From: Parasphingorhabdus sp.
Lineage (GTDB): Bacteria; Pseudomonadota; Alphaproteobacteria; Sphingomonadales; Sphingomonadaceae
Strand: one strand, 5' to 3'
DNA length: 64,000 nucleotides
Assembly (NCBI RefSeq): GCF_034669745.1
Contig: NZ_JAXMOP010000002.1
Shown: piece after piece, positions 3,599 through 46,081 of the stretch
Numbering within the stretch: position 1 is the first letter of the stretch
Layout: the number at the start of each line of letters is the position of its first letter
Notes under the pieces: generated by a model
What the model saw: the letters and a program-made list of their open reading frames with translations, nothing else
The model's database searches: none
What the model was told of the DNA's origin: nothing
Position numbers and translations under genes: made by a program

Positions 3599-4873
3599 GT
3601 GCATCAAACAACAAATCCCGATTCAATAAAAGCTTTTTTAAAAAACCTGTACCAACAGGCGCTGGCACCGGCACTGCCCGGGAATGCGATGCGCACTCTG
3701 CAATGGCCGGCGGTCCCGGGCCGGACCTATATTTTATCAGTCGGCAAGGCAGCGACGCAGATGGTTGCAGCCATTCAGGACCGCCTGCCGCAATCGGCAG
3801 CAGGGCTGATCGTAACCCGGCGCGGCTATGTCCATTCCGGATTTCTGCCGGGCAATATGGAGATCATCGAGGCATCCCATCCGGTGCCTGATGATGCCGG
3901 AGCAAATGCCGCGCAAATGGCGCTGGCGGCAGCGGATAGGCTGGGCAAAGATGACCTTCTGCTGGTGCTGATGTCTGGCGGCGCCAGCGCGCTGCTTCCC
4001 GCACCAGCGGACGGCATGTCCCTCGCAGAGAAACAGCAAATTACCAGGGCATTGCTGCTGAGCGGCGCCGCGATCCATGAAATGAATATTGTCCGCAAGC
4101 ATCTGTCCGCAATCAAGGGTGGCCGACTGGCTGCACGAGCATGGCCGGCAGCTACCCACATGATAGCCATTTCGGATATTCCCGGTGACGACATTGCAAT
4201 GATCGGCTCGGGACCTACTGTTGCCGACAGCTCGACTTGTGCTGAGGCCCTTTCCATTATCGAGAAATATGCAATCGCCCTGCCCGCATCAACCCAGGCA
4301 CAACTGGCCAGTGGCCTTCTGGAAACGCCAAAGTTCGACGATCCGAAACTGCAGCGAGCGACTGCCGAAATTTGCGCCCGTCCCGCAGATATGTGTGCGG
4401 CGGCTGGTCGGGCCGCGCAGCAATCAGGCTATGAAGTGATCATGCTTGGTGACGCGCTGGAAGGGGATGCTCTGACCCTCGGGAAAGAACATGCGTTGCA
4501 AGCGCTTGCCCTGAAAGCAGAAGGACGAAAGGTGGCGCTTGTTTCGGGCGGCGAAGCGACGGTGGCGGTCCGCAATCCCGATGGTCGCGGCGGTCGATGC
4601 ACTGCCTATCTCCTCGCCTGTGCACTGAGCCTGGCGGGCGAGCCCGACATATGTGGCTTTGCCGCAGACAGCGATGGTATTGACGGCTCCGAAGATAATG
4701 CAGGTGCGTTTTTGTGGCCCGGCATTTTGCAAGAAATGGGCGGCCCGGGTCCGGCCCGGCAATTCCTGGAACTGGATAACAGCTATCTTGCCTTTCAAAA
4801 GGCCAAGGGCCTGTTGATGACCGGGCCGTCGGGAACCAATGTCAATGATCTGAGAGTGCTGCTCGTTGGATGA
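3599..4873 (+). CDS. glycerate 2-kinase / hydroxypyruvate reductase-like protein (DUF4147 + MOFRL domains)
   Basis: The track ORF is 3512..4873. Starting at the ATG at 3512 would overlap the divergent phosphorylase start by 38 nt. An in-frame GTG at 3599 (VHQTTNPDSIKAFLKNLYQQAL...) avoids that overlap and fits the usual N-terminus. Typical motifs are present: SVGKAA, LVLMSGGASALL, ISDIPGDD, GGEATV, TGPSGTNVNDL. Confidence 0.8.
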   Translation: MHQTTNPDSIKAFLKNLYQQALAPALPGNAMRTLQWPAVPGRTYILSVGKAATQMVAAIQDRLPQSAAGLIVTRRGYVHSGFLPGNMEIIEASHPVPDDAGANAAQMALAAADRLGKDDLLLVLMSGGASALLPAPADGMSLAEKQQITRALLLSGAAIHEMNIVRKHLSAIKGGRLAARAWPAATHMIAISDIPGDDIAMIGSGPTVADSSTCAEALSIIEKYAIALPASTQAQLASGLLETPKFDDPKLQRATAEICARPADMCAAAGRAAQQSGYEVIMLGDALEGDALTLGKEHALQALALKAEGRKVALVSGGEATVAVRNPDGRGGRCTAYLLACALSLAGEPDICGFAADSDGIDGSEDNAGAFLWPGILQEMGGPGPARQFLELDNSYLAFQKAKGLLMTGPSGTNVNDLRVLLVG

Positions 4874-4972
4874 AATGAACGCTTTTGGCCTGGAATAGTC
4901 AACGCCGATGCGCCGCGATCCGGCTGCGCAACGGAAACTGGCGGTGCTACTCCCTCACCCCGAAAACATGAA

Positions 4973-7384
4973 TCACGCGGACAGCCGCGCCTCTTCCATT
5001 ACGCTGTCCAGCCAGATCGCTTCAAAAACATCGGGTGTAACGGGTTTTGAGATATGCCAGCCTTGACCGATATCGCACCCGTATCGGGTCAGCAGTTCCA
5101 GACATGGTTGATCTTCGATGCCCTCGGCCACGATCTTGAATCCTAACGCATGAGCCATTTTAATGGTGGATTTTACCATCACGCGATTGGCATTGTCGGT
5201 GGTCATGGTTTTGACGAAGCTTTGGTCCAGTTTGATTTCGCTGACAGGCAGGCGCTGCAAATAGCTCATCGTCGACTGGCCGGTACCATAATCATCGATC
5301 GACACTCTGATCCTCGCATTCTGGATAAGTTTCAGAGCGAAAGCTGATCGTTCCGGATCCGACATCGTTGCTGTTTCCGTGACTTCAAATACGATCTGTG
5401 CGTTGTCGACCCGGGCTTCTTCAACCATCGCAATCGCCCGGTGGACAAAGTCCTTGTCAGCCAAAAGTGTGGCCGAAATATTGACCGAGCAGGTTAGCCC
5501 TGGCCGCCGCCCACTCCAGCTGGCCACATCATCCAGCGCCAGCTGTAAAACATGATAGGTCAGTCCGTCGATCCGGCCGGCTTGCTCCAGCAAGGGAATG
5601 AAAATATCTGGGCTGATAATGCCACGCTCGGGATGATACCAGCGAACCAGTGCCTCCGCGCCATCAAGTCGATTTGCCGAAAGATCCCATTTGGGTTGAT
5701 AGACCACGCCAAGGTGCCCGTCTTCGAGTGCCTGATCCAGTTCAATCAGAAGATCATGCTTTTGTCCGATTGCATGATCGAATTTGTGATCGTGCCAAGT
5801 CCATCTGATTCCGGAGGCCAGTGCCTGCTCCGATGCGATTTTGGATTCATCCAGGGTCTGGCTGCTAATACCGAAAGTCATATCGACCTTGATCTTGGTT
5901 TCTTGTGCCATGATCGGAGCTTGTAGCAGCGCCGATGCGGTATCGAAATGACCCGGAATATTGGAAGTATATTCTTTCTTCACAAGCCATGCGATCATAT
6001 CTGAATCTACATGATAAATACTCTCGGATTGGGCGAGAAAACTAAAACGGCTAGCAAGATTTTGAAACAGATCATGGCGCGATTCCCTGTTGGTCAACAC
6101 CAGCAATTCACGGAAATTTACAAGCCGAGCTGCTGCGATATAACCAAAATCGCTCGTATCTATGATTTTTTGCAGGGCCGCTTCATTTGGCAGTCCGCTT
6201 ATTTCATTGACATATTGACTGGTTTTAAGCGCTGTTGTGGTGGTCAGCAATTTTTGCGAAAGCATGTAAACCGAGAGGAAGAAAAAGGCCGGAACATTGG
6301 AAAATGTGAACAGCCGTAAATATTCAACCAGAAGCAATAAGCCTACCAGTACGAAAATCGAGACAAAAGCAATCCAGATCAAGCCACGGGACGAGATTTT
6401 TCTTGTTGTTATGCAGACCAACATCAGGATGGCAGAGAGCAAGAGCGCAGGAAATTTTCCCAGGTCCCCCAAATTTGTTCCACTGATCAACGTTTCACTC
6501 GCCAACGCCTGTATAACAACGCCAGGGAGCACGCCAAAGCGGCTCATCGGATATCGATCACCCAATTCTATCGCGGTGGCACCAATCAGTATCTTTTTGC
6601 CCCGCAACTCGGGTGGCAAGTCATTCGAGTTGATCAGATCAACAAAACTTAGCCGCGGAATGGTTGTCGGATCGATGGATTGATCGATTGCAAAACTTTG
6701 ATCGATGTTGCCCGCTACTTCGGCGATCATGCTCGCCAGCGATGGACGCGTTGTCCCAGCTGTGGTCGTGCCATAGCTGTAGCGGTTCAGTTGGCCCCGA
6801 CTGTCCGGAGACACATTGACAGACGCCAGAAATGCATTTTTCTGCAAGACATCTATCGGCAGACTTTCAACAAATTCATGCTGTCCGTTTGAGGCGCGCT
6901 GGCGGAACGTAGGCAATATCACCGTTGCATCGGATTTATCTATCGCATCCGCTAGCAGCTGATCTTCGGTCTCGGTTGAGCGCGATGAGAAGTCTATATC
7001 GAATGCGATTAGCGTTACACCGGCATCATTCAGCTTTTCTATGGCTTTGGCATAATATGCGCGAGGCCACGGCCAGCGGTCTACCATTTCCAAAGATTTT
7101 GCGTCAATTTCGGCAATATAGACCTGACCGGATGCGGGCTTGGCGAGAATATTGGCCCGCACATCGCCCAATCTTTCTTCAACATCGAGGCCAACGTTGA
7201 CTGAGACCAGTGCAAGACCGGCCGTCAATGCCAATATCCATGGCAAGAATGTGAGGCGGAAGGCTGTTGCCCGGATAGAAGTTAATAAAGTCTTCAACAG
7301 TGTCTCCGCTCGTCGACCAGCGGCGCTTGTAATCCAGACCCATCTATTTTGCGTTAATGCAAATAATTCCTGAGTTTCAGGCAA
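4973..7384 (-). CDS. CHASE2 sensor domain / degenerate GGDEF / EAL c-di-GMP phosphodiesterase membrane protein
   Basis: 803 aa. An N-terminal TM helix is followed by a periplasmic CHASE2-like region (IAEIDAKSLE..WPWPR..IAFDIDFS), then three to four TM helices. The middle domain has SGLPNEAAL, but HVDSDMIAW replaces the GG(D/E)EF motif. The C-terminal EAL domain has intact motifs: EALVRW, EVTE, DDYGTG, KLD, EGIED, QGW. The start is a TTG without an obvious SD, so the start position is uncertain. Confidence 0.85.
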   Translation of the reverse strand: MPETQELFALTQNRWVWITSAAGRRAETLLKTLLTSIRATAFRLTFLPWILALTAGLALVSVNVGLDVEERLGDVRANILAKPASGQVYIAEIDAKSLEMVDRWPWPRAYYAKAIEKLNDAGVTLIAFDIDFSSRSTETEDQLLADAIDKSDATVILPTFRQRASNGQHEFVESLPIDVLQKNAFLASVNVSPDSRGQLNRYSYGTTTAGTTRPSLASMIAEVAGNIDQSFAIDQSIDPTTIPRLSFVDLINSNDLPPELRGKKILIGATAIELGDRYPMSRFGVLPGVVIQALASETLISGTNLGDLGKFPALLLSAILMLVCITTRKISSRGLIWIAFVSIFVLVGLLLLVEYLRLFTFSNVPAFFFLSVYMLSQKLLTTTTALKTSQYVNEISGLPNEAALQKIIDTSDFGYIAAARLVNFRELLVLTNRESRHDLFQNLASRFSFLAQSESIYHVDSDMIAWLVKKEYTSNIPGHFDTASALLQAPIMAQETKIKVDMTFGISSQTLDESKIASEQALASGIRWTWHDHKFDHAIGQKHDLLIELDQALEDGHLGVVYQPKWDLSANRLDGAEALVRWYHPERGIISPDIFIPLLEQAGRIDGLTYHVLQLALDDVASWSGRRPGLTCSVNISATLLADKDFVHRAIAMVEEARVDNAQIVFEVTETATMSDPERSAFALKLIQNARIRVSIDDYGTGQSTMSYLQRLPVSEIKLDQSFVKTMTTDNANRVMVKSTIKMAHALGFKIVAEGIEDQPCLELLTRYGCDIGQGWHISKPVTPDVFEAIWLDSVMEEARLSA

Positions 7385-7408
7385 ACGGGAGTATTCTGCA
7401 AACTGCGG

Positions 7409-8800
7409 CTAGTTTTCCATTTTTTTGCCGTTTCCGCCGCCATTGCCGTTTCCGCCGCCATTGCCGTTTCCACCGCCGTTGCCGTTTCCGCCGCCATTGC
7501 CGTTTCCGCCGCCATTGCCGTTTCCACCGCCATTGCCGTTTCCACCGCCGTTGCCGTTTCCACCGCCGTTGCCGTTTCCGCCGCCATTGCCGTTTCCACC
7601 GCCATTGCCGTTTCCACCGCCGTTGCCGTTTCCACCGCCGTTGCCGTTTCCGCCGCCATTGCCGTTTCCGCCGCCATTGCCGTCTCCGCCGCCATTGCCG
7701 TTTCCACCGCCATTGCCGTTTCCACCGCCGTTGCCGTTTCCACCGCCGTTGCCGTTTCCACCGCCGTTGCCGTTTCCACCGCCATTGCCGTTTCCACCGC
7801 CGGTATCGATTGCGCCGCCGTTGCCATTGCCACCGGCATTGCCATTACCATTGCCACCAGCATTGCCATTGCCGTTATCACCGGCATTGCCGTTACCATT
7901 CCCTCCAGCATTGCCATTGCCGACGTCATCCCCGCTGAAAGGATTTCCATTACCATTTCCTACCGCGCCCGGATTGCCATTGTTCAAACCGTTACCACCA
8001 CCCGCAAAGCCCGGTATAGATGGGTTCGATTCAGCCAATTTGGCCAAAACGTTTGCAGATTCACCATTGGTCACCAGACCACCGGTCAGATGGCTGAGCG
8101 AAACAGGAGTTTCCAGAACAGGTGCCGTGATGGTTCCTTCAAAAGCACCGTTGGCGATTTCGAGCAATGCGGTTTCATCCATGGGTTCCGGTGTGTCGGC
8201 ACTCCCGGCAGGAGCATTGGGTGAATCAATCGTCCGTGATTCAGATCCGGCGATGGTCAGACGAAATTGCTGGTCGCGATTGACCATACCGATCATTCCC
8301 GGAGACAATAATTGGGTCGCGCCGCCGTCGAGGGTAGATACCTGCACAGCGCCTTCGGTGACCTGAACTGCCGTCCCGGTTTCCGAAACAGTGACGCTGA
8401 ACGTCGTGCCTTTGACTACAGCTGCGAGATAGGGAGTATTTACACCGAAATGCGGTGTAGCCTTCTTGTCGATCCGAAACAGGACATTGCCGATTTCTTC
8501 AAAAAATTGAACAACACCGCCACTTTGCTTCGGTGCGCTTATTCGCAGTCGGCTGTTGGGTGAAACAACAACATATTCCTGTCCACGGACCAGAACCGCC
8601 CGGCTTTTATTCCCTGTGGTAACGATGTCGCCCGCGTTCAGACTGCCGCCGCTGATCGCAATTTGTGAAACGCCGGAGCGCAGAATATTAACTGTTCCGG
8701 TTCGTTCGGAAAGCTTCCACTCCGGAGTTCCCGCATGGGCAGTACCCGCCGCCATGATTGCGACAATTGCGAGGAATTTGTTCATTTTCTGTATCTTCAT
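7409..8800 (-). CDS. secreted FecR-domain protein with a very long Gly/Asn repeat tail, (GNGNGG)21
   Basis: 463 aa. It has a signal peptide (MKIQKMNKFLAIVAIMAAGTAHA/GT) and a FecR-like beta-rich domain (GDIVTTGNKSRAVLVRGQEYVVVSPNSRLRI ... VKGTTFSV..VTEGAVQV). From about residue 265 to 459 the protein is almost only G and N. It lies 24 nt upstream of the CHASE2-EAL gene on the same strand. Confidence 0.8.
   Translation of the reverse strand: MKIQKMNKFLAIVAIMAAGTAHAGTPEWKLSERTGTVNILRSGVSQIAISGGSLNAGDIVTTGNKSRAVLVRGQEYVVVSPNSRLRISAPKQSGGVVQFFEEIGNVLFRIDKKATPHFGVNTPYLAAVVKGTTFSVTVSETGTAVQVTEGAVQVSTLDGGATQLLSPGMIGMVNRDQQFRLTIAGSESRTIDSPNAPAGSADTPEPMDETALLEIANGAFEGTITAPVLETPVSLSHLTGGLVTNGESANVLAKLAESNPSIPGFAGGGNGLNNGNPGAVGNGNGNPFSGDDVGNGNAGGNGNGNAGDNGNGNAGGNGNGNAGGNGNGGAIDTGGGNGNGGGNGNGGGNGNGGGNGNGGGNGNGGGNGNGGGDGNGGGNGNGGGNGNGGGNGNGGGNGNGGGNGNGGGNGNGGGNGNGGGNGNGGGNGNGGGNGNGGGNGNGGGNGNGGGNGNGGGNGKKMEN
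7427..7804 (-). repeat. 18-bp tandem repeat x21 (GCCGTTTCC[G/A]CCGCC[A/G]TT), coding for GNGNGG units; a degenerate continuation runs to about nt 8010
   Basis: I aligned the units by hand at 7427, 7445, 7463 ... 7787. Three synonymous unit variants occur, plus one G->D unit at 7679-7696. The last unit has diverged. Confidence 0.95.
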
Positions 8801-8951
8801 TTGATCTACTCTGGTCAGTTTTAAAGCACTATTCCTGCTTATATGACGCTTTTATAGCTGCTCTATATGCTGATACCGTTTAGAAATAGGCTGAATATTC
8901 TGTAAACAACCAGACGCTAAGGAATTCCTAAGGATTTGACGCTAGAGCGAA

Positions 8952-10619
8952 TTGTTTTGTGTCCTGGAGTTGTTTGTGCATTCAGAAATAAAAATAGCGA
9001 TATGGACTCTGCTATTCTGCAGTTCTTCTGCCGCTTTTGCTCAGCAAGCCGGGAATCCCTTCGAAAGCGTGAGCAATCAGGGCGAGTGGACTGTTGGCGT
9101 GCCACCCGGAAATGATGTGGTAGCGCCGATCGTAGTCCGGGACGATAGTTTTCAACCCACCAGCGAAACACGTTCCATCACTATCGGTGCCGTCGCCGTA
9201 AAATCCGGACCTCAAATCCCGGCCGATGTGCTTGCCAGAAGTTACGAAAAATTCATCGGATTAGAAGCCAATGAAGATGTGCTCAGGGATCTCGCGAGTG
9301 CCGTATCGACCGCAGCCAGGAACAAGGGTTATATTTTCGCCAGCGCCCAAATTCCATCACAAGCGGTCAAAATAGGTATTGTCGAAGTCCTGCTGGATCC
9401 CGGCGCGATTGATGAAGTTCGGATCATCGGGTCACAGAATGGACGGCTCAGAAAAATTCTGGACAAGTTGCGCAGCCCGGCCGCCGTCTCACAAATCGTC
9501 GAACGACAATTATTACTCGCAGGCGACCTGCCCGGCATAACTCTGCTCAATACAAATTATCAGCGGGAAGATGGCAAAGGCGTGCTTATCGTTTCGGTGC
9601 GCGAAGACAAGGCCAGAGGGCATGTAGCTCTCGACAATTACGGTCCGGAAACTCTCGGTCCGGTCCGTATGCGTCTCGATCTGGACCTGACCGGCCTGTT
9701 GAGCGATAGCGATGTGCTGACCACCAATGTCATCAGCTCGGTTTTGCAACCGAAAGAACTGACCTATATATATTCGCGATATGCCATGACGCTTGGAGAC
9801 GGCGGAACAGTGATCGGACTGGCTGGTGCTGCCGGACGAACCCACTCTGGTGGCAATCTCGGTAATTTGGGCTTCCGGGGTCGAAATCGATACGCATCGA
9901 TCTTTGTCAATCATGCTGTGCAACGCAGCAACGACTTCAATTTGTGGCTCAACGCCGAACTTGCCTATCTTGATGTTGAACAATCACAAAATGGATCACC
10001 GTTCCAGGATGATCAGATCGCGACCGCTGCAGTGAATTTTTCAGGCAATTATAATGTCGGCATTGGCAGAATCTACGGTGGAATCGGCGTAACCCGGGGA
10101 TTGGGCATATTGGGCGCGAGCAGAAGCGGCGATCCCCTGAATTCCCGCACCGATGGCAGCGGTGAATTCACCAAGGCCAATTTTTGGCTCAACTCGATTC
10201 TGAACATGGGAGACGGTTTTGGCATGCGGTTGGCGGGCAATGCGCAAATAGCATCACGGCCATTGCTGTCTGCGCATGAGATCTCAATTGGCGGTGCCTA
10301 TTTCGGCAAAGGCTATGATTTCAGTGAACGATTTGGCGATGAAGGCATCCTCGGCCTGGCTGAATTGCGCAAGGAGTTTAACGACGTCAATCCATGGCTG
10401 GACTGGTTCCAGCTCTATACATTTGTTGACGGCGGTTATGTTTCCAATATCGGAACAGGATTTGGTGACGGGTCGCTGCTATCTGCTGGCGGCGGCTTGC
10501 GCTCCCAGATCGGCAGATTCGATCTGGGTATCGAAGCTGCCGCTCCGGTGGGCACCGATCGTTTTGAAAGCGGCGACCGGTCACCGAAAATCAATGTTCA
10601 AGTCGGATTACGCTTCTAG
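8952..10619 (+). CDS. ShlB/FhaC/HecB-family (TpsB-like) POTRA-containing outer-membrane beta-barrel
   Basis: 555 aa from the TTG at 8952. An in-frame GTG at 8976 gives a cleaner signal peptide (HSEIKIAIWTLLFCSSSAAFA/QQ). It has a POTRA-like region (IVEVLLDPGAIDEVRIIG...RQLLLAGDLPGI), a ShlB-type barrel, and a C-terminal ...VQVGLRF with terminal Phe. It is divergent from the FecR gene. Confidence 0.8.
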   Translation: MFCVLELFVHSEIKIAIWTLLFCSSSAAFAQQAGNPFESVSNQGEWTVGVPPGNDVVAPIVVRDDSFQPTSETRSITIGAVAVKSGPQIPADVLARSYEKFIGLEANEDVLRDLASAVSTAARNKGYIFASAQIPSQAVKIGIVEVLLDPGAIDEVRIIGSQNGRLRKILDKLRSPAAVSQIVERQLLLAGDLPGITLLNTNYQREDGKGVLIVSVREDKARGHVALDNYGPETLGPVRMRLDLDLTGLLSDSDVLTTNVISSVLQPKELTYIYSRYAMTLGDGGTVIGLAGAAGRTHSGGNLGNLGFRGRNRYASIFVNHAVQRSNDFNLWLNAELAYLDVEQSQNGSPFQDDQIATAAVNFSGNYNVGIGRIYGGIGVTRGLGILGASRSGDPLNSRTDGSGEFTKANFWLNSILNMGDGFGMRLAGNAQIASRPLLSAHEISIGGAYFGKGYDFSERFGDEGILGLAELRKEFNDVNPWLDWFQLYTFVDGGYVSNIGTGFGDGSLLSAGGGLRSQIGRFDLGIEAAAPVGTDRFESGDRSPKINVQVGLRF

Positions 10620-10681
10620 ACAGTTCCACGAACCGACCGCCGCGGCAAAATATGCCAGCTATATCGCGGTCAGCCTGTCAG

Positions 10682-11035
10682 TTAATCCTTCACGGGCCGT
10701 GTGTTGGAACTGGCATAGCCGGCATAGCCGTCGGTAAAGGAGAACAGCACTCCATCGGCTTCTTCCGTGGCATAGCTTGTTGCTTCGCTTTCCGAACTGC
10801 CAAATCCCATTTCGTCTTTTTTCATTGCCATGATCATCGCGTTGCGTTCGTCAGAGCAAGCCGTGGTGGCGGCTTTCTTGAAAGCGCTGGTTCCGATTTT
10901 TTCGTCCAACTGGGCCGTCGTAAATTCGGTCAAGCAATTGGAATAGGCCAGCCGTGCGGTGTCCGCATCGGCGATGGTGGCGGCTGATACTGTGCTGAAT
11001 AAAGCAAAACTTAAAAATGCAATCATCTCTATCAA
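10682..11035 (-). CDS. small secreted hypothetical protein
   Basis: 117 aa with an N-terminal signal-like segment (IAFLSFALFSTVSAA), two Cys residues and an acidic C-terminal half. I recognise no family. Confidence 0.45.
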   Translation of the reverse strand: MIEMIAFLSFALFSTVSAATIADADTARLAYSNCLTEFTTAQLDEKIGTSAFKKAATTACSDERNAMIMAMKKDEMGFGSSESEATSYATEEADGVLFSFTDGYAGYASSNTRPVKD

Positions 11036-11535: not shown

Positions 11536-13431
11536 ATGTATAAATACCGAATTTTCGTCACATTGATGGCATCCTCTGCATATTGCTGCGCGGTTCCGGC
11601 CGTGGCCGCTGATGACGATCGCGAGATCATCGTTACCGCCACCGGCATCGAACAGGATATCGAGGATACCGGCGCTGCAATCTCGGTCCTGACCGAAGTC
11701 GATATTCGCGATCAGCAATCCATCACCCTTTCCGCGATCCTGCAGGAACTTCCAGGCGTCAACGTCACCCAGAGCGGTGGATTGGGTTCGCAGGCATCGG
11801 TTCGTATCCGCGGGGCAGAAAATGACCAGACGCTGGTGTTGGTCAATGGCATAAGGGTCAATGATCCCTCGACACCCGATGGCTCTTTCGATTTCGGTAA
11901 CCTGCTCGCCGGCAATATCGAACGTGTCGAAGTGTTGCGCGGTGCGAGCGGCGTGACCTGGGGAAGCCAGGCGGTTGGCGGCGTGGTCAATATCACCACC
12001 AAAAGACCGACCGAAGATCTTACCCTGTTTGCTCAAGGTGAATATGGCGCGAACGATACGGTGCGGCTGGTCAGCAATGCCTCGGGCAAATTCGGACCGG
12101 TTGGACTGAGCATCGGTGGTGGCTATGCCCGAACCGACGGCATCAGCGCATATTCCGGCGGTTCCGAACCGGACGGGTATCGCCAATATTCGGCTTCAGG
12201 TCGCTTGCTCGTCGATATCACCGATGCCATCCGTTTCGAAGCCAGCGGCTATTACGCCGACAGCAGAGTCGACAATGACAACGTCTTCCCGCCGTATAGT
12301 TCCGATGACAGCCAGTTTTCGCTGGCACAGGAAGTCTATGGCAACGCCAGCATTCATGTTGCTGCGCTGGACGGGCGTTTCCAGAATCGATTTGCCTTCA
12401 GCATTGCCGACATCAACCGTGACATCATCAGCCCCTCTTTCACTTCCCGCCCCAGAGGACGGACGGAGCGGTTCGAATATCGTGGCGATCTGGCCGTGAT
12501 CGAGCAATTGCGCCTGGTCTTCGGGGCGGAAAAGGAAGACAGCCGCTATGAAAACAGCGGTGTGTCGGACTCGACCGGGATCGATTCCTTCTTCTTCCAG
12601 GCCGTGCTCAAACCGGCTGACGGACTCACTCTGACCGGCGGGATCCGGCACGACCAGCATGCGGATTTCGGCGGCAATACCAGTCTGGCTGGCAATCTGG
12701 CCTATCGGCTTGGCGCAGATGGTCCTACCATCCGGGCGAGCTATGCTGAGGGCTTCAGGGCTCCTTCCCTGATCGATCTTGACGACCGCCCGTTCGGCTA
12801 TGGCACGCCGGATTTGGTGCCGGAAACCGCAAAATCTTACGAGATCGGTATTGATCAGTCACTGATCGGACAGGCGGTGCAGGTCGCGGTGACGCTTTTC
12901 CAGCGGGACACGCTCAATCAGATTGCCTTCGCTGCTTGCCCGGTCGCACCGGATCCTGCGCCGGAAGTCTGCACGAACGGCAGTCGGCCCTACGGCACGA
13001 CCTTGAATATCGAGAGCAACCGCACCCGCGGCGTGGAGGCGATCTTGTCGATTGCTCCGTTTGAACGACTGCGGATCGACGCCAATTATACCTGGCTGGA
13101 CACCGAGAACCGGTCTGCCGGTGCCAATTTCGGCAATGAACTGGCGCGACGGCCAGCGAGCAGCCTCTATCTCAATGCCAGCTATCAAACCAGCTTCGGG
13201 CTGAGCCTTGGTGCGGACCTGCAGATGATCGGCGACAGTTTCGATGATCTGGCCAACAACCGCCGCCTCGATGGCTTTGCGCTTGCCGGAGTCCGGGCGA
13301 ACCTCCCGCTGACCGAGGGCATCGAAATTTTCGGACGTATCGACAATCTGTTCGATGTAAACTATGAAACGGCCACTGATTTTGGCTCTCCGGGACGTTC
13401 GGCTTATTTGGGAGCGCGGGCGCGTTTCTGA
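11536..13431 (+). CDS. btuB: TonB-dependent outer-membrane vitamin B12 receptor
   Basis: 631 aa with a signal peptide, a TonB box (DREIIVTATG), a plug domain (VRIRGAENDQTLVLVNGIRVND) and a barrel ending in ...YLGARARF. It lies directly downstream of a cobalamin riboswitch. Confidence 0.85.
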   Translation: MYKYRIFVTLMASSAYCCAVPAVAADDDREIIVTATGIEQDIEDTGAAISVLTEVDIRDQQSITLSAILQELPGVNVTQSGGLGSQASVRIRGAENDQTLVLVNGIRVNDPSTPDGSFDFGNLLAGNIERVEVLRGASGVTWGSQAVGGVVNITTKRPTEDLTLFAQGEYGANDTVRLVSNASGKFGPVGLSIGGGYARTDGISAYSGGSEPDGYRQYSASGRLLVDITDAIRFEASGYYADSRVDNDNVFPPYSSDDSQFSLAQEVYGNASIHVAALDGRFQNRFAFSIADINRDIISPSFTSRPRGRTERFEYRGDLAVIEQLRLVFGAEKEDSRYENSGVSDSTGIDSFFFQAVLKPADGLTLTGGIRHDQHADFGGNTSLAGNLAYRLGADGPTIRASYAEGFRAPSLIDLDDRPFGYGTPDLVPETAKSYEIGIDQSLIGQAVQVAVTLFQRDTLNQIAFAACPVAPDPAPEVCTNGSRPYGTTLNIESNRTRGVEAILSIAPFERLRIDANYTWLDTENRSAGANFGNELARRPASSLYLNASYQTSFGLSLGADLQMIGDSFDDLANNRRLDGFALAGVRANLPLTEGIEIFGRIDNLFDVNYETATDFGSPGRSAYLGARARF

Positions 13432-19752: not shown

Positions 19753-20274
19753 CTAGGCCAGCGCGCCGCGCGCGGGATATCCGGACTCGATCGCATAATC
19801 GATGCCCTGCAGCAACTGTTCGAGCGAAGGTCGGGTAAACGGCATGCTCTGGACACTGGCGAAATAGAGCGTCTGGTCCGGCTTGACGAGCAGCAGCGCC
19901 GGCTCGGAGAAAATCGACGGTTCAGCGCCGCCCGGACGTCCGGATGAAATATAGAGACCGAGGTCACGAGCGAGGCCTTCACCGAGACCATAGCCGATCA
20001 TCAGATCATCAACGCCCCATTCTTCAGCCGATTTCTGGGCTCGATCCTTGCTGTCCATGCTGATCGCAACCACGGTAATGCCGCGCTTGGCGAAATCCCC
20101 AAGATGGCGTTGCAGATCACGCAGCTGCATTTTGCAGATCGGGCAGTGCATACCGCGGTAAAATAGCAGCAGGGTAAAATAGTCGCCGAGACGCTGGCTC
20201 AGTTGAAACTTGCCCCCGTCGGTCATCGGTAAGGTAAAGTCGGGCACGGCTTTGGCGGGGAGGAGTCGGGACAT
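19753..20274 (-). CDS. peroxiredoxin-like (AhpC/TSA / redoxin family) protein
   Basis: 173 aa with FYRGMHCPICKMQL (a CxxC in a thioredoxin-fold context). It converges on the USP gene with a 4-nt gap. Confidence 0.75.
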   Translation of the reverse strand: MSRLLPAKAVPDFTLPMTDGGKFQLSQRLGDYFTLLLFYRGMHCPICKMQLRDLQRHLGDFAKRGITVVAISMDSKDRAQKSAEEWGVDDLMIGYGLGEGLARDLGLYISSGRPGGAEPSIFSEPALLLVKPDQTLYFASVQSMPFTRPSLEQLLQGIDYAIESGYPARGALA

Positions 20275-43486: not shown

Positions 43487-46081
43487 CTATTCGGCTTTGG
43501 CTTTCGTGGGCGCCTTCTTGGCCGCAGGCTTCTTTTTGGCAGCAGGCTTTTTCTTCGCCGCCGGCTTTTTCTTGGCAGCCGGTTTTTTCTTGGGGGCCGC
43601 TTTTTTCGCCCGCTTTTTTGCCGGGCCTTTGGCTGCGCGGTCATCGATCAGCTGAGCTGCTTCTTCCAAAGTCAGCTGATCCTTGTCGACTGTTTTTGGC
43701 AAAGACGCATTGGTGGTGCCATCGGTAACATAGGGGCCATAGCGGCCATCCATCAGTTTGATCTCGGACTCGGTGCGCGGGTGATTGCCCATGATCTTGA
43801 GCGGTTCCATCTTGCCACGACCACGACCACCACCATTTTTTGCCGCATCCGCCAGCTTGGCAACCGCTGCGTTCATGCCGATTTCGAACACTTCCTGAGT
43901 ATTTTCCAGCCGTGCAGAGCTGCCATTGTGGCTCAGATAGGGACCATAGCGGCCGATTTGTGCCATCACGGGCTCGCTGGTTTCCGGATGGATACCGACT
44001 TCACGAGGCAATGACAGCAATTTTACAGCCCATTCGAGACCGAAATCTTCTGCCGGAATATCCTTGGGGATTGACGAGCGCTTGGCTTCCTTGCCTTCGC
44101 CTTTTTCGACATAAGGTCCAAAGCGCCCCACTTTTTTGGTAATTTTTTCATCGCTGTCCGGATCGACACCCAGTTCCTGCGGTCCCTCATCCTCGTCAGC
44201 ATTGGCGCCACCACCCTGCGCAAAACGCCGGGTGAATTTGCATTCGGGATAGTTGGAGCAAGCGACAAAAGCGCCGAAGCGGCCACCGCGGAGGGCGAGC
44301 TTGCCTTCGTTGCACCGCGGACAAAGCCGGGGATCACTGCCATCTTCCTTTTCCGGAAAAAGATAAGGCTCCAGGAATGTATCCAGTTCCGCCGTAACTT
44401 CTGACGGCAATTTTTCCATCACTTCGACGGTCTTCGGCTTGAAGTCATGCCAGAATGCTTCGAGAATGGCCTGCCATTGCGCGCGGCCACCGCTGACTTC
44501 GTCGAGTTCATCCTCGAGCCCGGCGGTATAGTCATAAGCTACATAACGATCGAAAAAACGCTCGAGAAATCCCGTCAGCAACCGTCCGCTCTCCTCTGCG
44601 AAGAACCGGTTTTTTTCTATCCGGACATAGGCGCGGTCTTTCAGCGTCTTGATGATCGAGGCATAGGTAGATGGTCGGCCGATACCCAATTCTTCCATCT
44701 TCTTGACCAGACTGGCTTCGCTGTAGCGCGGCGGTGGCTGGGTAAAATGCTGGGTCGCATCAACGGCTTTCTTGGCCGGGCTGTCGCCCTTGGACATGGC
44801 CGGTAGCAGACCACCATCTTCGTCCTTGTCGTCATCCCGGCCTTCTTCGTATAGCGCCAGGAATCCTGGGAATTTCACAACCTGTCCATTCGCTCTCAGG
44901 CCCGTTTTGCCGGTCCCATCAAGCATTTCAACGGTGGTTCGTTCGAGGCGGGCCGAAGCCATCTGGCTGGCCATCGCCCGCTTCAGAATGAGATCATAGA
45001 GCTTGGCATGATCGCCACTGCCGACGCTCCGTTTCGTGAAACTGGTCGGGCGGATCGCTTCATGCGCTTCCTGCGCGTTCTTTGCCTTGGTCTTGTAGAT
45101 GCGCGGGCTGTCCGGGACATAGCTTGCGTCATAGCGATCAGCGATCGCCTTGCGCGCAGCCGAAATCGCGCTGCCATCCATTTGCACGCCGTCGGTCCGC
45201 ATGTAAGTAATCGCGCCATCTTCATAAAGTTGCTGAGCAATGCGCATCGTGTGACTGGCTGAATAGCCAAGCTTGCGCGCCGCTTCCTGTTGCAGCGTCG
45301 AAGTCGTGAATGGCGGTGGTGGATTGCGGGTCAGCGGTTTGGTTTCGATCGATTCAATAGTGAACAGCCCGTTTTCAACCGCAGTTTTGGCCAGCATCGC
45401 CTGATCTTCGTTGGCCAGATCCATTTTGCCGAGTTTTTTCCCGTCGTGAATCGTTAGTCGCGCCTCAAAGGCCTGGCCGCCCTGCTCCATTTGGGCCGTA
45501 ACCGACCAATATTCCTGCGGCCTGAACGCTTCGATTTCTCGTTCCCGCTCGACGATCAGCCGCAGCGAGACCGATTGCACTCGCCCTGCGGATTTAGCGC
45601 CGGGAAGCTTGCGCCACAACACCGGTGACAAAGTAAATCCGACCAGATAGTCCAGCGCCCGCCTTGCACGATAAGCGTCGATCAGATCATCATCCAGCGC
45701 GCGCGGGTGCGCCATCGCCTCGGTCACCGCCGCCTTGGTAATCGCATTGAAGGTCACCCGGTCTACGATATCGGGCAGCGCCTTCTTGTTCCGTAACACT
45801 TCCTGTACGTGCCAGCTGATTGCTTCCCCTTCCCGGTCAGGGTCGGTCGCGAGGATCAGTCGTGTGGCTTTTTTCGATTCGGCAGTAATCTCTTTGAGCT
45901 GTTTTGCCTTGTCGGCATAATTCTGCCAGGTCATGGCAAAACCATCCTCCGGATCGACCGAACCATCTTTCGGTGGAAGGTCGCGAATATGGCCGTAGGA
46001 TGCCAAGACCTTGAAATCCGATCCGAGATATTTTTCAATGGTTTTGGCTTTGGCGGGTGACTCAACAATAACTAGCTGCAT
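43487..46081 (-). CDS. topA: DNA topoisomerase I
   Basis: 864 aa with a Toprim N-terminus (LVIVESPAKAKTIEKYLG), the catalytic Tyr region, C-terminal Zn-ribbon motifs (CPRCNEGKL...CSNYPEC) and a Lys/Ala/Pro repeat tail. Confidence 0.95.
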   Translation of the reverse strand: MQLVIVESPAKAKTIEKYLGSDFKVLASYGHIRDLPPKDGSVDPEDGFAMTWQNYADKAKQLKEITAESKKATRLILATDPDREGEAISWHVQEVLRNKKALPDIVDRVTFNAITKAAVTEAMAHPRALDDDLIDAYRARRALDYLVGFTLSPVLWRKLPGAKSAGRVQSVSLRLIVEREREIEAFRPQEYWSVTAQMEQGGQAFEARLTIHDGKKLGKMDLANEDQAMLAKTAVENGLFTIESIETKPLTRNPPPPFTTSTLQQEAARKLGYSASHTMRIAQQLYEDGAITYMRTDGVQMDGSAISAARKAIADRYDASYVPDSPRIYKTKAKNAQEAHEAIRPTSFTKRSVGSGDHAKLYDLILKRAMASQMASARLERTTVEMLDGTGKTGLRANGQVVKFPGFLALYEEGRDDDKDEDGGLLPAMSKGDSPAKKAVDATQHFTQPPPRYSEASLVKKMEELGIGRPSTYASIIKTLKDRAYVRIEKNRFFAEESGRLLTGFLERFFDRYVAYDYTAGLEDELDEVSGGRAQWQAILEAFWHDFKPKTVEVMEKLPSEVTAELDTFLEPYLFPEKEDGSDPRLCPRCNEGKLALRGGRFGAFVACSNYPECKFTRRFAQGGGANADEDEGPQELGVDPDSDEKITKKVGRFGPYVEKGEGKEAKRSSIPKDIPAEDFGLEWAVKLLSLPREVGIHPETSEPVMAQIGRYGPYLSHNGSSARLENTQEVFEIGMNAAVAKLADAAKNGGGRGRGKMEPLKIMGNHPRTESEIKLMDGRYGPYVTDGTTNASLPKTVDKDQLTLEEAAQLIDDRAAKGPAKKRAKKAAPKKKPAAKKKPAAKKKPAAKKKPAAKKAPTKAKAE

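Follow-up and report, generated by a model that had tools for sequence, protein, structure and literature searches.

A Gly/Asn repeat array in a Parasphingorhabdus FecR-domain protein is one instance of a widespread low-complexity tail in a FecR/ShlB/CHASE2-EAL module

An 18-bp coding array forms the tail of a FecR-domain protein

We analysed a 64,000-nucleotide stretch of DNA from Parasphingorhabdus sp. (RefSeq assembly GCF_034669745.1, contig NZ_JAXMOP010000002.1), hereafter the window, in which the gene for a 463-aa FecR-domain protein ends in a near-perfect array of 18-bp units that encodes almost only Gly and Asn. An earlier reading of the letters, here called the original prediction, had singled out this array as a tail whose length is likely to vary. 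The gene and its parts are as follows, with positions numbered from the first letter of the window.

7409-8800, minus strand: gene for the 463-aa FecR-domain protein with the Gly/Asn tail, stop codon at 7409-7411 (open reading frame (ORF), translation, Pfam)
8732-8800, minus strand: Sec-type signal peptide, residues 1-23 (MKIQKMNKFLAIVAIMAAGTAHA/G, putative cleavage site AHA/G), read from the translation
8342-8626, minus strand: FecR domain PF04773, residues 59-153 (Pfam, E 3.7e-10)
8051-8224, minus strand: conserved segment after the FecR domain, residues 193-250, SPNAP...FEGxIxAPVxExPVSLSxLTGGLV (alignment A1)
7805-8017, minus strand: degenerate proximal G/N-rich tail, residues 262-332 (Tandem Repeats Finder (TRF) rows 7817-7922, translation)
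7427-7804, minus strand: 18-bp tandem array of 21 units, (GNGNGG)n, residues 333-458 (18-mer cutting, TRF)
7412-7426, minus strand: C-terminal end KKMEN after the array (translation)

Cutting 7427-7804 into 18-mers returned eight copies of GCCGTTTCCACCGCCGTT, seven of GCCGTTTCCGCCGCCATT and four of GCCGTTTCCACCGCCATT, the three expected unit types, which are separated solely by two synonymous third-codon positions, together with one unit carrying GTC at 7679-7696 and a final unit that ends in GGT. TRF reported the array at 7425-7843 (period 18, 23.3 copies, 91% matches, score 642). The array lies where it was first noticed, the cutting bears out its 21 head-to-tail units, and translation of the ORF places them as predicted at residues 333-458 of a protein ending GNGKKMEN. 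The 21st unit has Thr for Asn, leaving 20 canonical units and one edge variant. Gly and Asn make up 98.4% of the array residues and 88% of residues 270-463, the 42% of the protein that had been described as essentially Gly/Asn. The degenerate continuation, first traced to about nt 8010, extends to about nt 8017 and holds 24- and 48-bp sub-repeats encoding GNGNGNAG-type units. Such an array cannot arise by chance, and it is real.

Three finer claims about the units fared less well. The variant unit at 7679-7696 does not change Gly to Asp; its codon change is AAC to GAC, Asn to Asp. The unit types had been described as recurring in a fixed order, and array self-identity is indeed higher at a lag of 72 bp than at 36 bp (0.948 versus 0.924), but shuffling the order of unit types gave P of about 0.05, and support for higher-order repeat structure within the array is marginal. 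Selection for the peptide had also been proposed, but the units differ by only four mutational events (two synonymous sites and two non-synonymous singletons), and the comparison consequently has no statistical power to detect it.

The N-terminal part of the protein belongs to the FecR family, with a Pfam score of 40.5 bits against a cut-off of 24, and the domain was likewise found by Pfam in 10 of 10 diverse relatives scanned. The signal peptide has no lipobox Cys and keeps its position across alignment A1; cleavage after residue 23 would fit its classical AxA motif. From an alignment of 18 sequences AlphaFold2 modelled a beta-rich fold at residues 28-192 with a mean predicted local distance difference test score (pLDDT) of 60, and the best Foldseek matches of this N-terminal domain (N-domain) in the PDB are the FecR-type anti-sigma periplasmic domains 4m0n and PupR 6ovk, whose E-values of about 7e-3 and probability of 1.0 make them weak but consistent. 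Invariant or near-invariant columns of A1 include S193, P194, P197, I224, V233, G241 and L242, and residues 202-250 were modelled at pLDDT below 50. NCBIfam models add a faint similarity of the FecR domain to two Leptospira proteins, Lsa33 (named a surface adhesin; E 1.3e-6) and the lipoprotein LipL45 (E 1.3e-3), both far under the curated cut-offs. A look-up of the exact window protein returned no record, and no second full-length allele was found.

The tail is conserved in presence and divergent in sequence

Relatives were gathered in three ways. A search with the N-terminal 265 aa found 453 homologues, with names including Parasphingorhabdus, Sphingorhabdus and Parasphingopyxis and a best identity of 87%. 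A scan of species-representative genomes gave 541 relatives, from which 80 loci were kept, nearly all of them Sphingomonadales by name. An exhaustive profile search, in which each protein represents a 50%-identity cluster, returned 9,694 proteins when the cut-off was E <= 1e-3 and 750 when it was E <= 1e-30, and the conserved domain begins within the first few dozen residues in nearly all of the 150 best matches.

A low-complexity tail is present in 64 of 64 complete loci, with a minimum of 74 aa, a median of 252 and a maximum of 664, and is typically about 150-400 aa long. Among 85 longer representatives from the profile search, sequence entropy is 3.17 bits in the tail versus 3.84 in the N-domain. 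Their two commonest residues sort these tails into the classes G/N, D/G, P/A/V, A with K/D/E, and G/S. G/N tails belong to the closer relatives of the window protein, those sharing at least about 59% N-domain identity; in a group at about 50% identity, with P. cellanae and P. litoris among its members, the tails are D-rich, such as (DDQGD)n; A/K/D/E-rich tails occur in many Sphingomonas and P/A/V-rich tails in other lineages, with G/S and G/P in a few. Even within the G/N class the unit changes with the species, from about 29 copies of GNGNGNPG to a 25-aa unit, a 19-aa unit and (GN)x92.

The original prediction knew of no characterised protein carrying this tail on a FecR domain. None of the proteins found here is characterised, but the implied uniqueness does not hold, as the GNGNGG array itself occurs on at least nine other FecR-family proteins. 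The proposed comparison of copy number among relatives gives a range of 3 to 42 units: 42 in Sphingomonas koreensis (locus L053), 31 in L089, 28 in L086, 24 in Stakelama marina (L029), 15 in L088, 13 in L073, 9 in L032, 7 in L016 and 3 in L083, with the S. marina and S. koreensis arrays coming from isolate genomes. The L086 array is built from the identical three DNA unit types as that of the window, and its N-domain DNA is 77% identical; judged from these letters, the common unit types point to one shared array homogenised by unit turnover, or may alternatively reflect convergence through limited codon choice. Across the family, then, the presence of the tail is conserved and its sequence is not: composition class varies by group, unit by species and copy number by allele. 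The array in the window is one instance of a widespread uncharacterised feature.

Some tails contain or end in short non-repetitive elements. A basic terminus after the repeats, as in KKMEN, is frequent across the family when C-termini are compared. L088 and L089 share a non-repetitive extension after the array, (M/I)AEPAF..R..P.ESLARPAINPK, which the window protein does not have. In P0171, P0194, P0208, P0210, P0217, P0225, P0228 and L071 the C-terminal part of the tail has a recurrent short hydrophobic stretch that holds two Cys residues, for example GICLLGLICIG or LSICVLGICLG, and in many cases precedes a run of Asp; other lineages terminate in an amphipathic or basic motif such as DLLKGK or LLKRIQIAAQQLAANRKGN; the window protein has neither the two-Cys motif nor a DLLKGK-type end. 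Conserved islands, NNGHGNDxDGxDDSNPG(K/R)G (repeated one to three times) and PNYGGDQPDGTCNGVPNCxSG, interrupt the low-complexity sequence in P0036, P0038, P0042, P0053, P0058 and L020-L025, and also in P0006, P0009 and P0049. The first island was considered as a thrombospondin-type-3 (TSP_3) calcium-binding repeat and rejected, there being no TSP_3 match; neither island matches Pfam. Tails rich in R, Q and W (e.g. WRKRQRWRKRQR) occur in L032, L046, P0017, P0223, P0239 and P0249. They look like frameshifted readings of G/N repeat DNA, and could be sequencing or assembly indels or real frameshift alleles; L032 has runs of N, and the record name of L046 suggests a long-read assembly.

Near-identical orthologues differ by whole in-frame units

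The expectation that tail length varies was borne out among orthologues grouped at 90% identity, whose alleles differ by whole in-frame units. Within single clusters, a 25-aa unit is present in five, four or three copies, a GNGNGNPG tail measures 206 versus 294 aa (11 units apart), and tails built from a 17-aa unit measure 116, 99 or 82 aa. A cluster with a 15-aa repeat has tails of 100, 115 or 91 aa, and smaller within-cluster differences amount to 7 additional residues or to one or two GN dipeptides. This in-frame, whole-unit pattern is consistent and marks the tails of these orthologues as length-polymorphic in-frame coding repeats; the array of the window, with its 18-bp unit, would be another. 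In the same species as the window, the TARA scaffold L081 is 98.3% identical in DNA over 3.9 kb and encodes an identical N-domain; an in-frame deletion removes part of its proximal degenerate tail, and the contig then stops inside the 18-bp array.

Units are probably gained and lost in frame by replication slippage or unequal recombination, and the same turnover would keep the arrays homogeneous. Such arrays break short-read assemblies, which is why many database entries for this family are partial: 15 of 80 genome contigs, and three of the nine metagenome contigs that reach the tail, end within it. Because short-read metagenomes supply many of the sequences and contigs so often stop here, individual copy numbers, including the 21 of the window, are uncertain and provisional.

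The tail is predicted to be disordered

AlphaFold2 run on the window's tail alone gave a pLDDT of 36 with no secondary structure, and the tails of ten diverse members had no Pfam match. Hydrophobic and charged residues are nearly absent from the window's tail. A sequence search of the PDB with it returned only low-complexity matches (collagen G-X-Y, dipeptide-repeat and circumsporozoite chains); the collagen matches arise because GNGNGG, read as GNG-GGN, places Gly at every third residue. This period is absent from orthologous tails with units of 2, 8, 17 or 25 aa and so is not conserved in homologues, as a polyglycine-II (PGII) or collagen-like bundle would lead one to expect. Since orthologous tails use different units and compositions (D-rich, P/A/V-rich, A/K/D/E-rich), no common fold is required, and one is unlikely. 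We regard the tail as predicted to be disordered. The suggestion of a polar-zipper, beta-solenoid or amyloid-like structure is not supported by the model or by the diversity of units, nor is a PGII fold, and the other suggestion, a flexible spacer of tunable length, is consistent with the evidence.

Asn precedes Gly at 53 of the 61 Asn residues in the window's tail. Since Asn-Gly is the most deamidation-prone dipeptide, an Asp/isoAsp polyanion could form spontaneously from the tail as it ages. We mention as speculative the idea that the aged tail would become like the tails of relatives that are D-rich or carry GDGNGG units and might serve as a timer of protein age.

The FecR gene belongs to a conserved three-gene module

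Two genes flank the FecR-domain gene in the window.

4973-7384, minus strand: gene for an 803-aa CHASE2-EAL cyclic di-GMP (c-di-GMP) phosphodiesterase (Pfam CHASE2 1.7e-30, EAL 1e-65)
8952-10619, plus strand, divergent: gene for a ShlB/FhaC-type (TpsB-like) outer-membrane protein with a POTRA_2 domain (ShlB 6.3e-20, POTRA_2 1.6e-06)

The CHASE2-EAL gene begins 24 nt downstream of the FecR-gene stop codon on the same strand; EAL, DDYGTG and EGIE motifs are visible in its translation, and NCBIfam phosphodiesterase models match its EAL portion. The translation of the divergent gene contains TRG, within the stretch GVTRGLG, as well as FVDGG, a fit to the motif FxDxG of Omp85-type proteins, and its combination of POTRA domain and ShlB/FhaC-type barrel is that of the TpsB transporter of two-partner secretion (TPS). 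A scan of 4800-11000 for promoters and terminators gave counts no higher than in shuffled sequence.

Of the 80 related loci, 72 gave a ShlB match and 59 a CHASE2-EAL match, with the loci missing one or the other mostly lying on short contigs. The commonest gene order is that of the window, ShlB reading away from FecR and FecR followed by CHASE2-EAL; in some Sphingomonas loci CHASE2-EAL has been relocated beyond ShlB and the trio is still together. The module is thus conserved across Sphingomonadales, and the genomic link between FecR protein, barrel and CHASE2 enzyme is strong. Two genomes carry paralogous FecR-tail loci. In Sphingomonas koreensis S11.1Y (L036 and L053) the two tails differ, one having a G/P/N 16-aa unit and the other (GNGNGG)x42; Sphingomonas sp. 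MA1305 has L065 and L061, and for the latter neither ShlB nor CHASE2 was matched within a distance of 6 kb.

The scan of neighbouring ORFs with Pfam found no TpsA-type cargo gene or TPS (haemagglutination activity) domain, and no extracytoplasmic function (ECF) sigma gene or sigma-70 r2/r4 domain. A TonB-dependent receptor gene (Plug plus barrel) lies at 11536-13431 on the plus strand, about 900 bp past the ShlB-type gene, and since its Plug begins at residue 42 it has no N-terminal signalling extension. An identity of the FecR protein as an anti-sigma factor of cell-surface signalling was considered and rejected, as the protein lacks both an anti-sigma domain and a transmembrane helix and no ECF sigma gene turned up in the ORFs around it; instead it begins with the 23-aa signal peptide, and its conserved fold starts from about residue 28.

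A candidate tether in a putative split NsrA-like system

CHASE2 is a widespread sensor domain, and the environmental factors that it recognises are stated to be unknown (PMC5192318). The only characterised outer-membrane partner that our literature searches found is NsrA of Sinorhizobium meliloti. Three papers (PMC7529298, PMC13001267, PMC9239204) describe NsrA as an outer-membrane protein that has a FecR domain and, at residues 600-1200, a barrel, and that is required for signalling to the CHASE2 adenylate cyclases CyaD1, CyaD2 and CyaK; the first of them (PMC7529298) places its FecR part in the periplasm, with only the barrel loops exposed. In Burkholderia a LysM-FecR protein adjoins a CHASE2 histidine kinase (PMC5192318), and in Campylobacterota a CHASE2 cyclase is clustered with a FecR outer-membrane protein. 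By analogy among these systems, FecR-domain proteins appear to be recurrent partners of CHASE2 enzymes. On this pattern FecR would be the constant element and the attached part would anchor it in the envelope, LysM to peptidoglycan and a fused barrel to the outer membrane.

For the family of the window protein the attached part is a long tail of predicted disorder and the barrel is a separate protein, and it is this departure from the pattern that leads us to propose a tether or threaded segment. We lean, with moderate confidence, towards a reading in which the tail is a tether or threadable segment, disordered and polymorphic in length, that would connect the periplasmic FecR adaptor to the ShlB-type barrel, or pass through that barrel, in a split CHASE2 signalling system of NsrA type. 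What the tail and the module do is proposed here from their genomic link and from analogy. The N-terminal FecR domain would dock on periplasmic partners, either the sensor domain of the CHASE2 enzyme or the POTRA domain of the barrel protein or both, in a manner resembling that of FecR/PupR domains on outer-membrane transducers. The tail would either tether this domain to the barrel or thread into or through it, substituting non-covalently for the covalent link between FecR and barrel in NsrA, and the module would couple outer-membrane events to c-di-GMP hydrolysis. The tail would act through bulk properties (length, flexibility, hydrophilicity) instead of a fold, and the property under selection would be its length and not its sequence. 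The PupR domain structure 6ovk was solved in complex with its outer-membrane partner, and the structural matches of the N-domain to FecR-type periplasmic domains may accordingly be counted, by analogy, as support for docking.

The best description of the module would be a split variant of the NsrA-type arrangement of FecR, barrel and CHASE2 enzyme, with c-di-GMP output. Both systems combine a FecR domain with a beta-barrel of the outer membrane and with a CHASE2 enzyme of the inner membrane that controls a nucleotide second messenger. In S. meliloti, however, FecR and barrel are fused in one polypeptide of about 1200 aa, the components are linked genetically and functionally, and the output is synthesis of cyclic AMP, whereas here there are two genes, the link is known from genomic context and the output would be c-di-GMP hydrolysis by the EAL domain. 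A Gly/Asn repeat tail is not reported for NsrA, and the likeness of the two barrels is one of description. With FecR/PupR anti-sigma regulators the window protein shares the Pfam FecR domain, and the C-terminal domain of PupR docks on the periplasmic domain of an outer-membrane protein; unlike them it has no cytoplasmic anti-sigma domain or transmembrane helix, has a cleavable signal peptide and a long low-complexity tail, and is paired with a ShlB-type barrel in place of a TonB-dependent transducer.

Spacers offer a further comparison. The spacers of TonB (Pro-rich) and TolA (an Ala/Lys/Glu-rich helix) span the periplasm, and their composition and length vary, with length being the property that matters. 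The P/A/V-rich and A/K/D/E-rich tail classes of the FecR-tail family resemble them, but these spacers join two folded domains, whereas the tail of the FecR protein is terminal, and to our knowledge a G/N composition has not been described for either. Mycobacterial PE_PGRS proteins are cell-envelope proteins with GC-rich coding repeats of Gly-Gly-Ala or Gly-Gly-Asn that are polymorphic in copy number; they differ in having an unrelated N-terminal PE domain, type VII secretion and other repeat units, and they come from an unrelated phylum.

Several points weigh against the tether proposal. Spacers normally join two domains, and here only KKMEN follows the tail, although many relatives end in a short amphipathic or basic motif or a Cys-loop motif. 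Any position given to the tail, be it within the barrel, on the cell surface or in the periplasm, is our own deduction, and the exact domain layout of NsrA, the closest model, is taken here from secondary citations. The AlphaFold2 prediction for the tail was a single-sequence run, which is weak evidence for disorder, and the copy-number differences come largely from short-read metagenome assemblies, which can collapse repeats.

Alternative readings of the tail

Four other explanations were weighed, of which the first carries the most weight, followed in turn by a neutral repeat, a folded Gly/Asn tail and an assembly artefact. In the first, the FecR-tail protein or its tail would be a TpsA-like cargo exported by the ShlB-type transporter as a surface or matrix component (an adhesin, hydrogel or decoy), and its hypervariability would reflect diversifying selection at the surface by phage, grazers or neighbours. 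The layout resembles that of TPS pairs such as FhaB/FhaC and ShlA/ShlB, with the gene for a ShlB-family POTRA-barrel protein beside one for a signal-peptide protein that has a conserved N-terminal part (about 250 aa) and a variable C-terminal part, and no other cargo is encoded nearby. The extreme variation of tails between species and strains, the weak similarity to the Leptospira surface proteins (at the E 1e-6 level and far under curated cut-offs) and the fit between c-di-GMP and surface or biofilm control all favour this reading. Against it, FecR is the only Pfam match of the FecR-tail protein, and a TPS (haemagglutination activity) domain is not among its matches; the 'passenger' is a disordered tail and not a beta-helix, secretion being hypothetical here; and NsrA, from the closest system that has been characterised, is described with a periplasmic FecR part (PMC7529298). 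We consider this export model unlikely, if worth keeping in mind.

A second explanation, which we hold to be somewhat less likely still, is that the C-terminus is dispensable and tolerates runaway expansion of micro- or minisatellites with no function of their own. Tail sequence is unconserved between lineages, the differences among units show no evidence of purifying selection, and several members (L032, L046, P0017 and P0249) have the R/Q/W-rich tails that resemble frameshifted G/N repeat DNA, all of which a neutral repeat would allow. Yet a tail is retained in every one of the 64 complete loci, down to the shortest of 74 aa; tails of all composition classes stay open and in frame over hundreds of codons; their composition is consistently hydrophilic and disorder-promoting; and in many lineages a short C-terminal motif is kept after the repeats.

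Snow-flea antifreeze protein and the phage gp38 adhesins build PGII bundles from sequences similar to this one, and the Gly at every third residue of GNGNGG, with its collagen G-X-Y matches in the PDB, likewise speaks for a folded tail (polar zipper, beta-solenoid, amyloid, or a PGII or collagen-like bundle). The low pLDDT and lack of secondary structure, the lack of hydrophobic core residues, and orthologous tails that either break the period of three or are D-rich, P/A/V-rich or A/K/D/E-rich make it highly improbable. That assembly created or distorted the array is barely credible: contigs that end inside the tail, the same-species TARA contig among them, would fit, but like arrays recur in independent assemblies that include the S. 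marina and S. koreensis isolates, unit variants are interspersed along the array, and the frame stays open to a family-typical basic terminus.

For the tether proposal itself, a bolder form would make the tail a trans-envelope 'string' that runs through the ShlB-type barrel and couples the periplasmic FecR domain, mechanically or sterically, to the surface, with strain-specific length setting the sensitivity of the CHASE2-EAL c-di-GMP switch. We rate this form as improbable, below the neutral repeat and above a folded tail.

Our literature searches found no paper on the FecR/ShlB/CHASE2-EAL trio or on a GNGNGG-type tail, and no functional study of periplasmic CHASE2-EAL c-di-GMP proteins. The loci described here belong to a large uncharacterised family in which the FecR adaptor is inherited together with a CHASE2-EAL phosphodiesterase and an orphan barrel of the TpsB type, and always has a fast-evolving tail of predicted disorder. 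If the tail does link the adaptor to or through the barrel, the family would show a TpsB-type protein serving signalling and not secretion, and would provide a natural series of tail lengths with which to test envelope geometry against c-di-GMP output.

Other repeats in the window

A second 18-bp coding repeat lies at 43515-43607 (TRF, 5.2 copies), inside an ORF at 43487-46081 on the minus strand. The repeat codes for (KKPAAK)n, which ends a protein of 864 aa resembling, from its sequence, DNA topoisomerase I, and appears to be an ordinary lysine-rich tail. TRF also reported a 22-bp tandem repeat of two copies at 20110-20151 (score 61).

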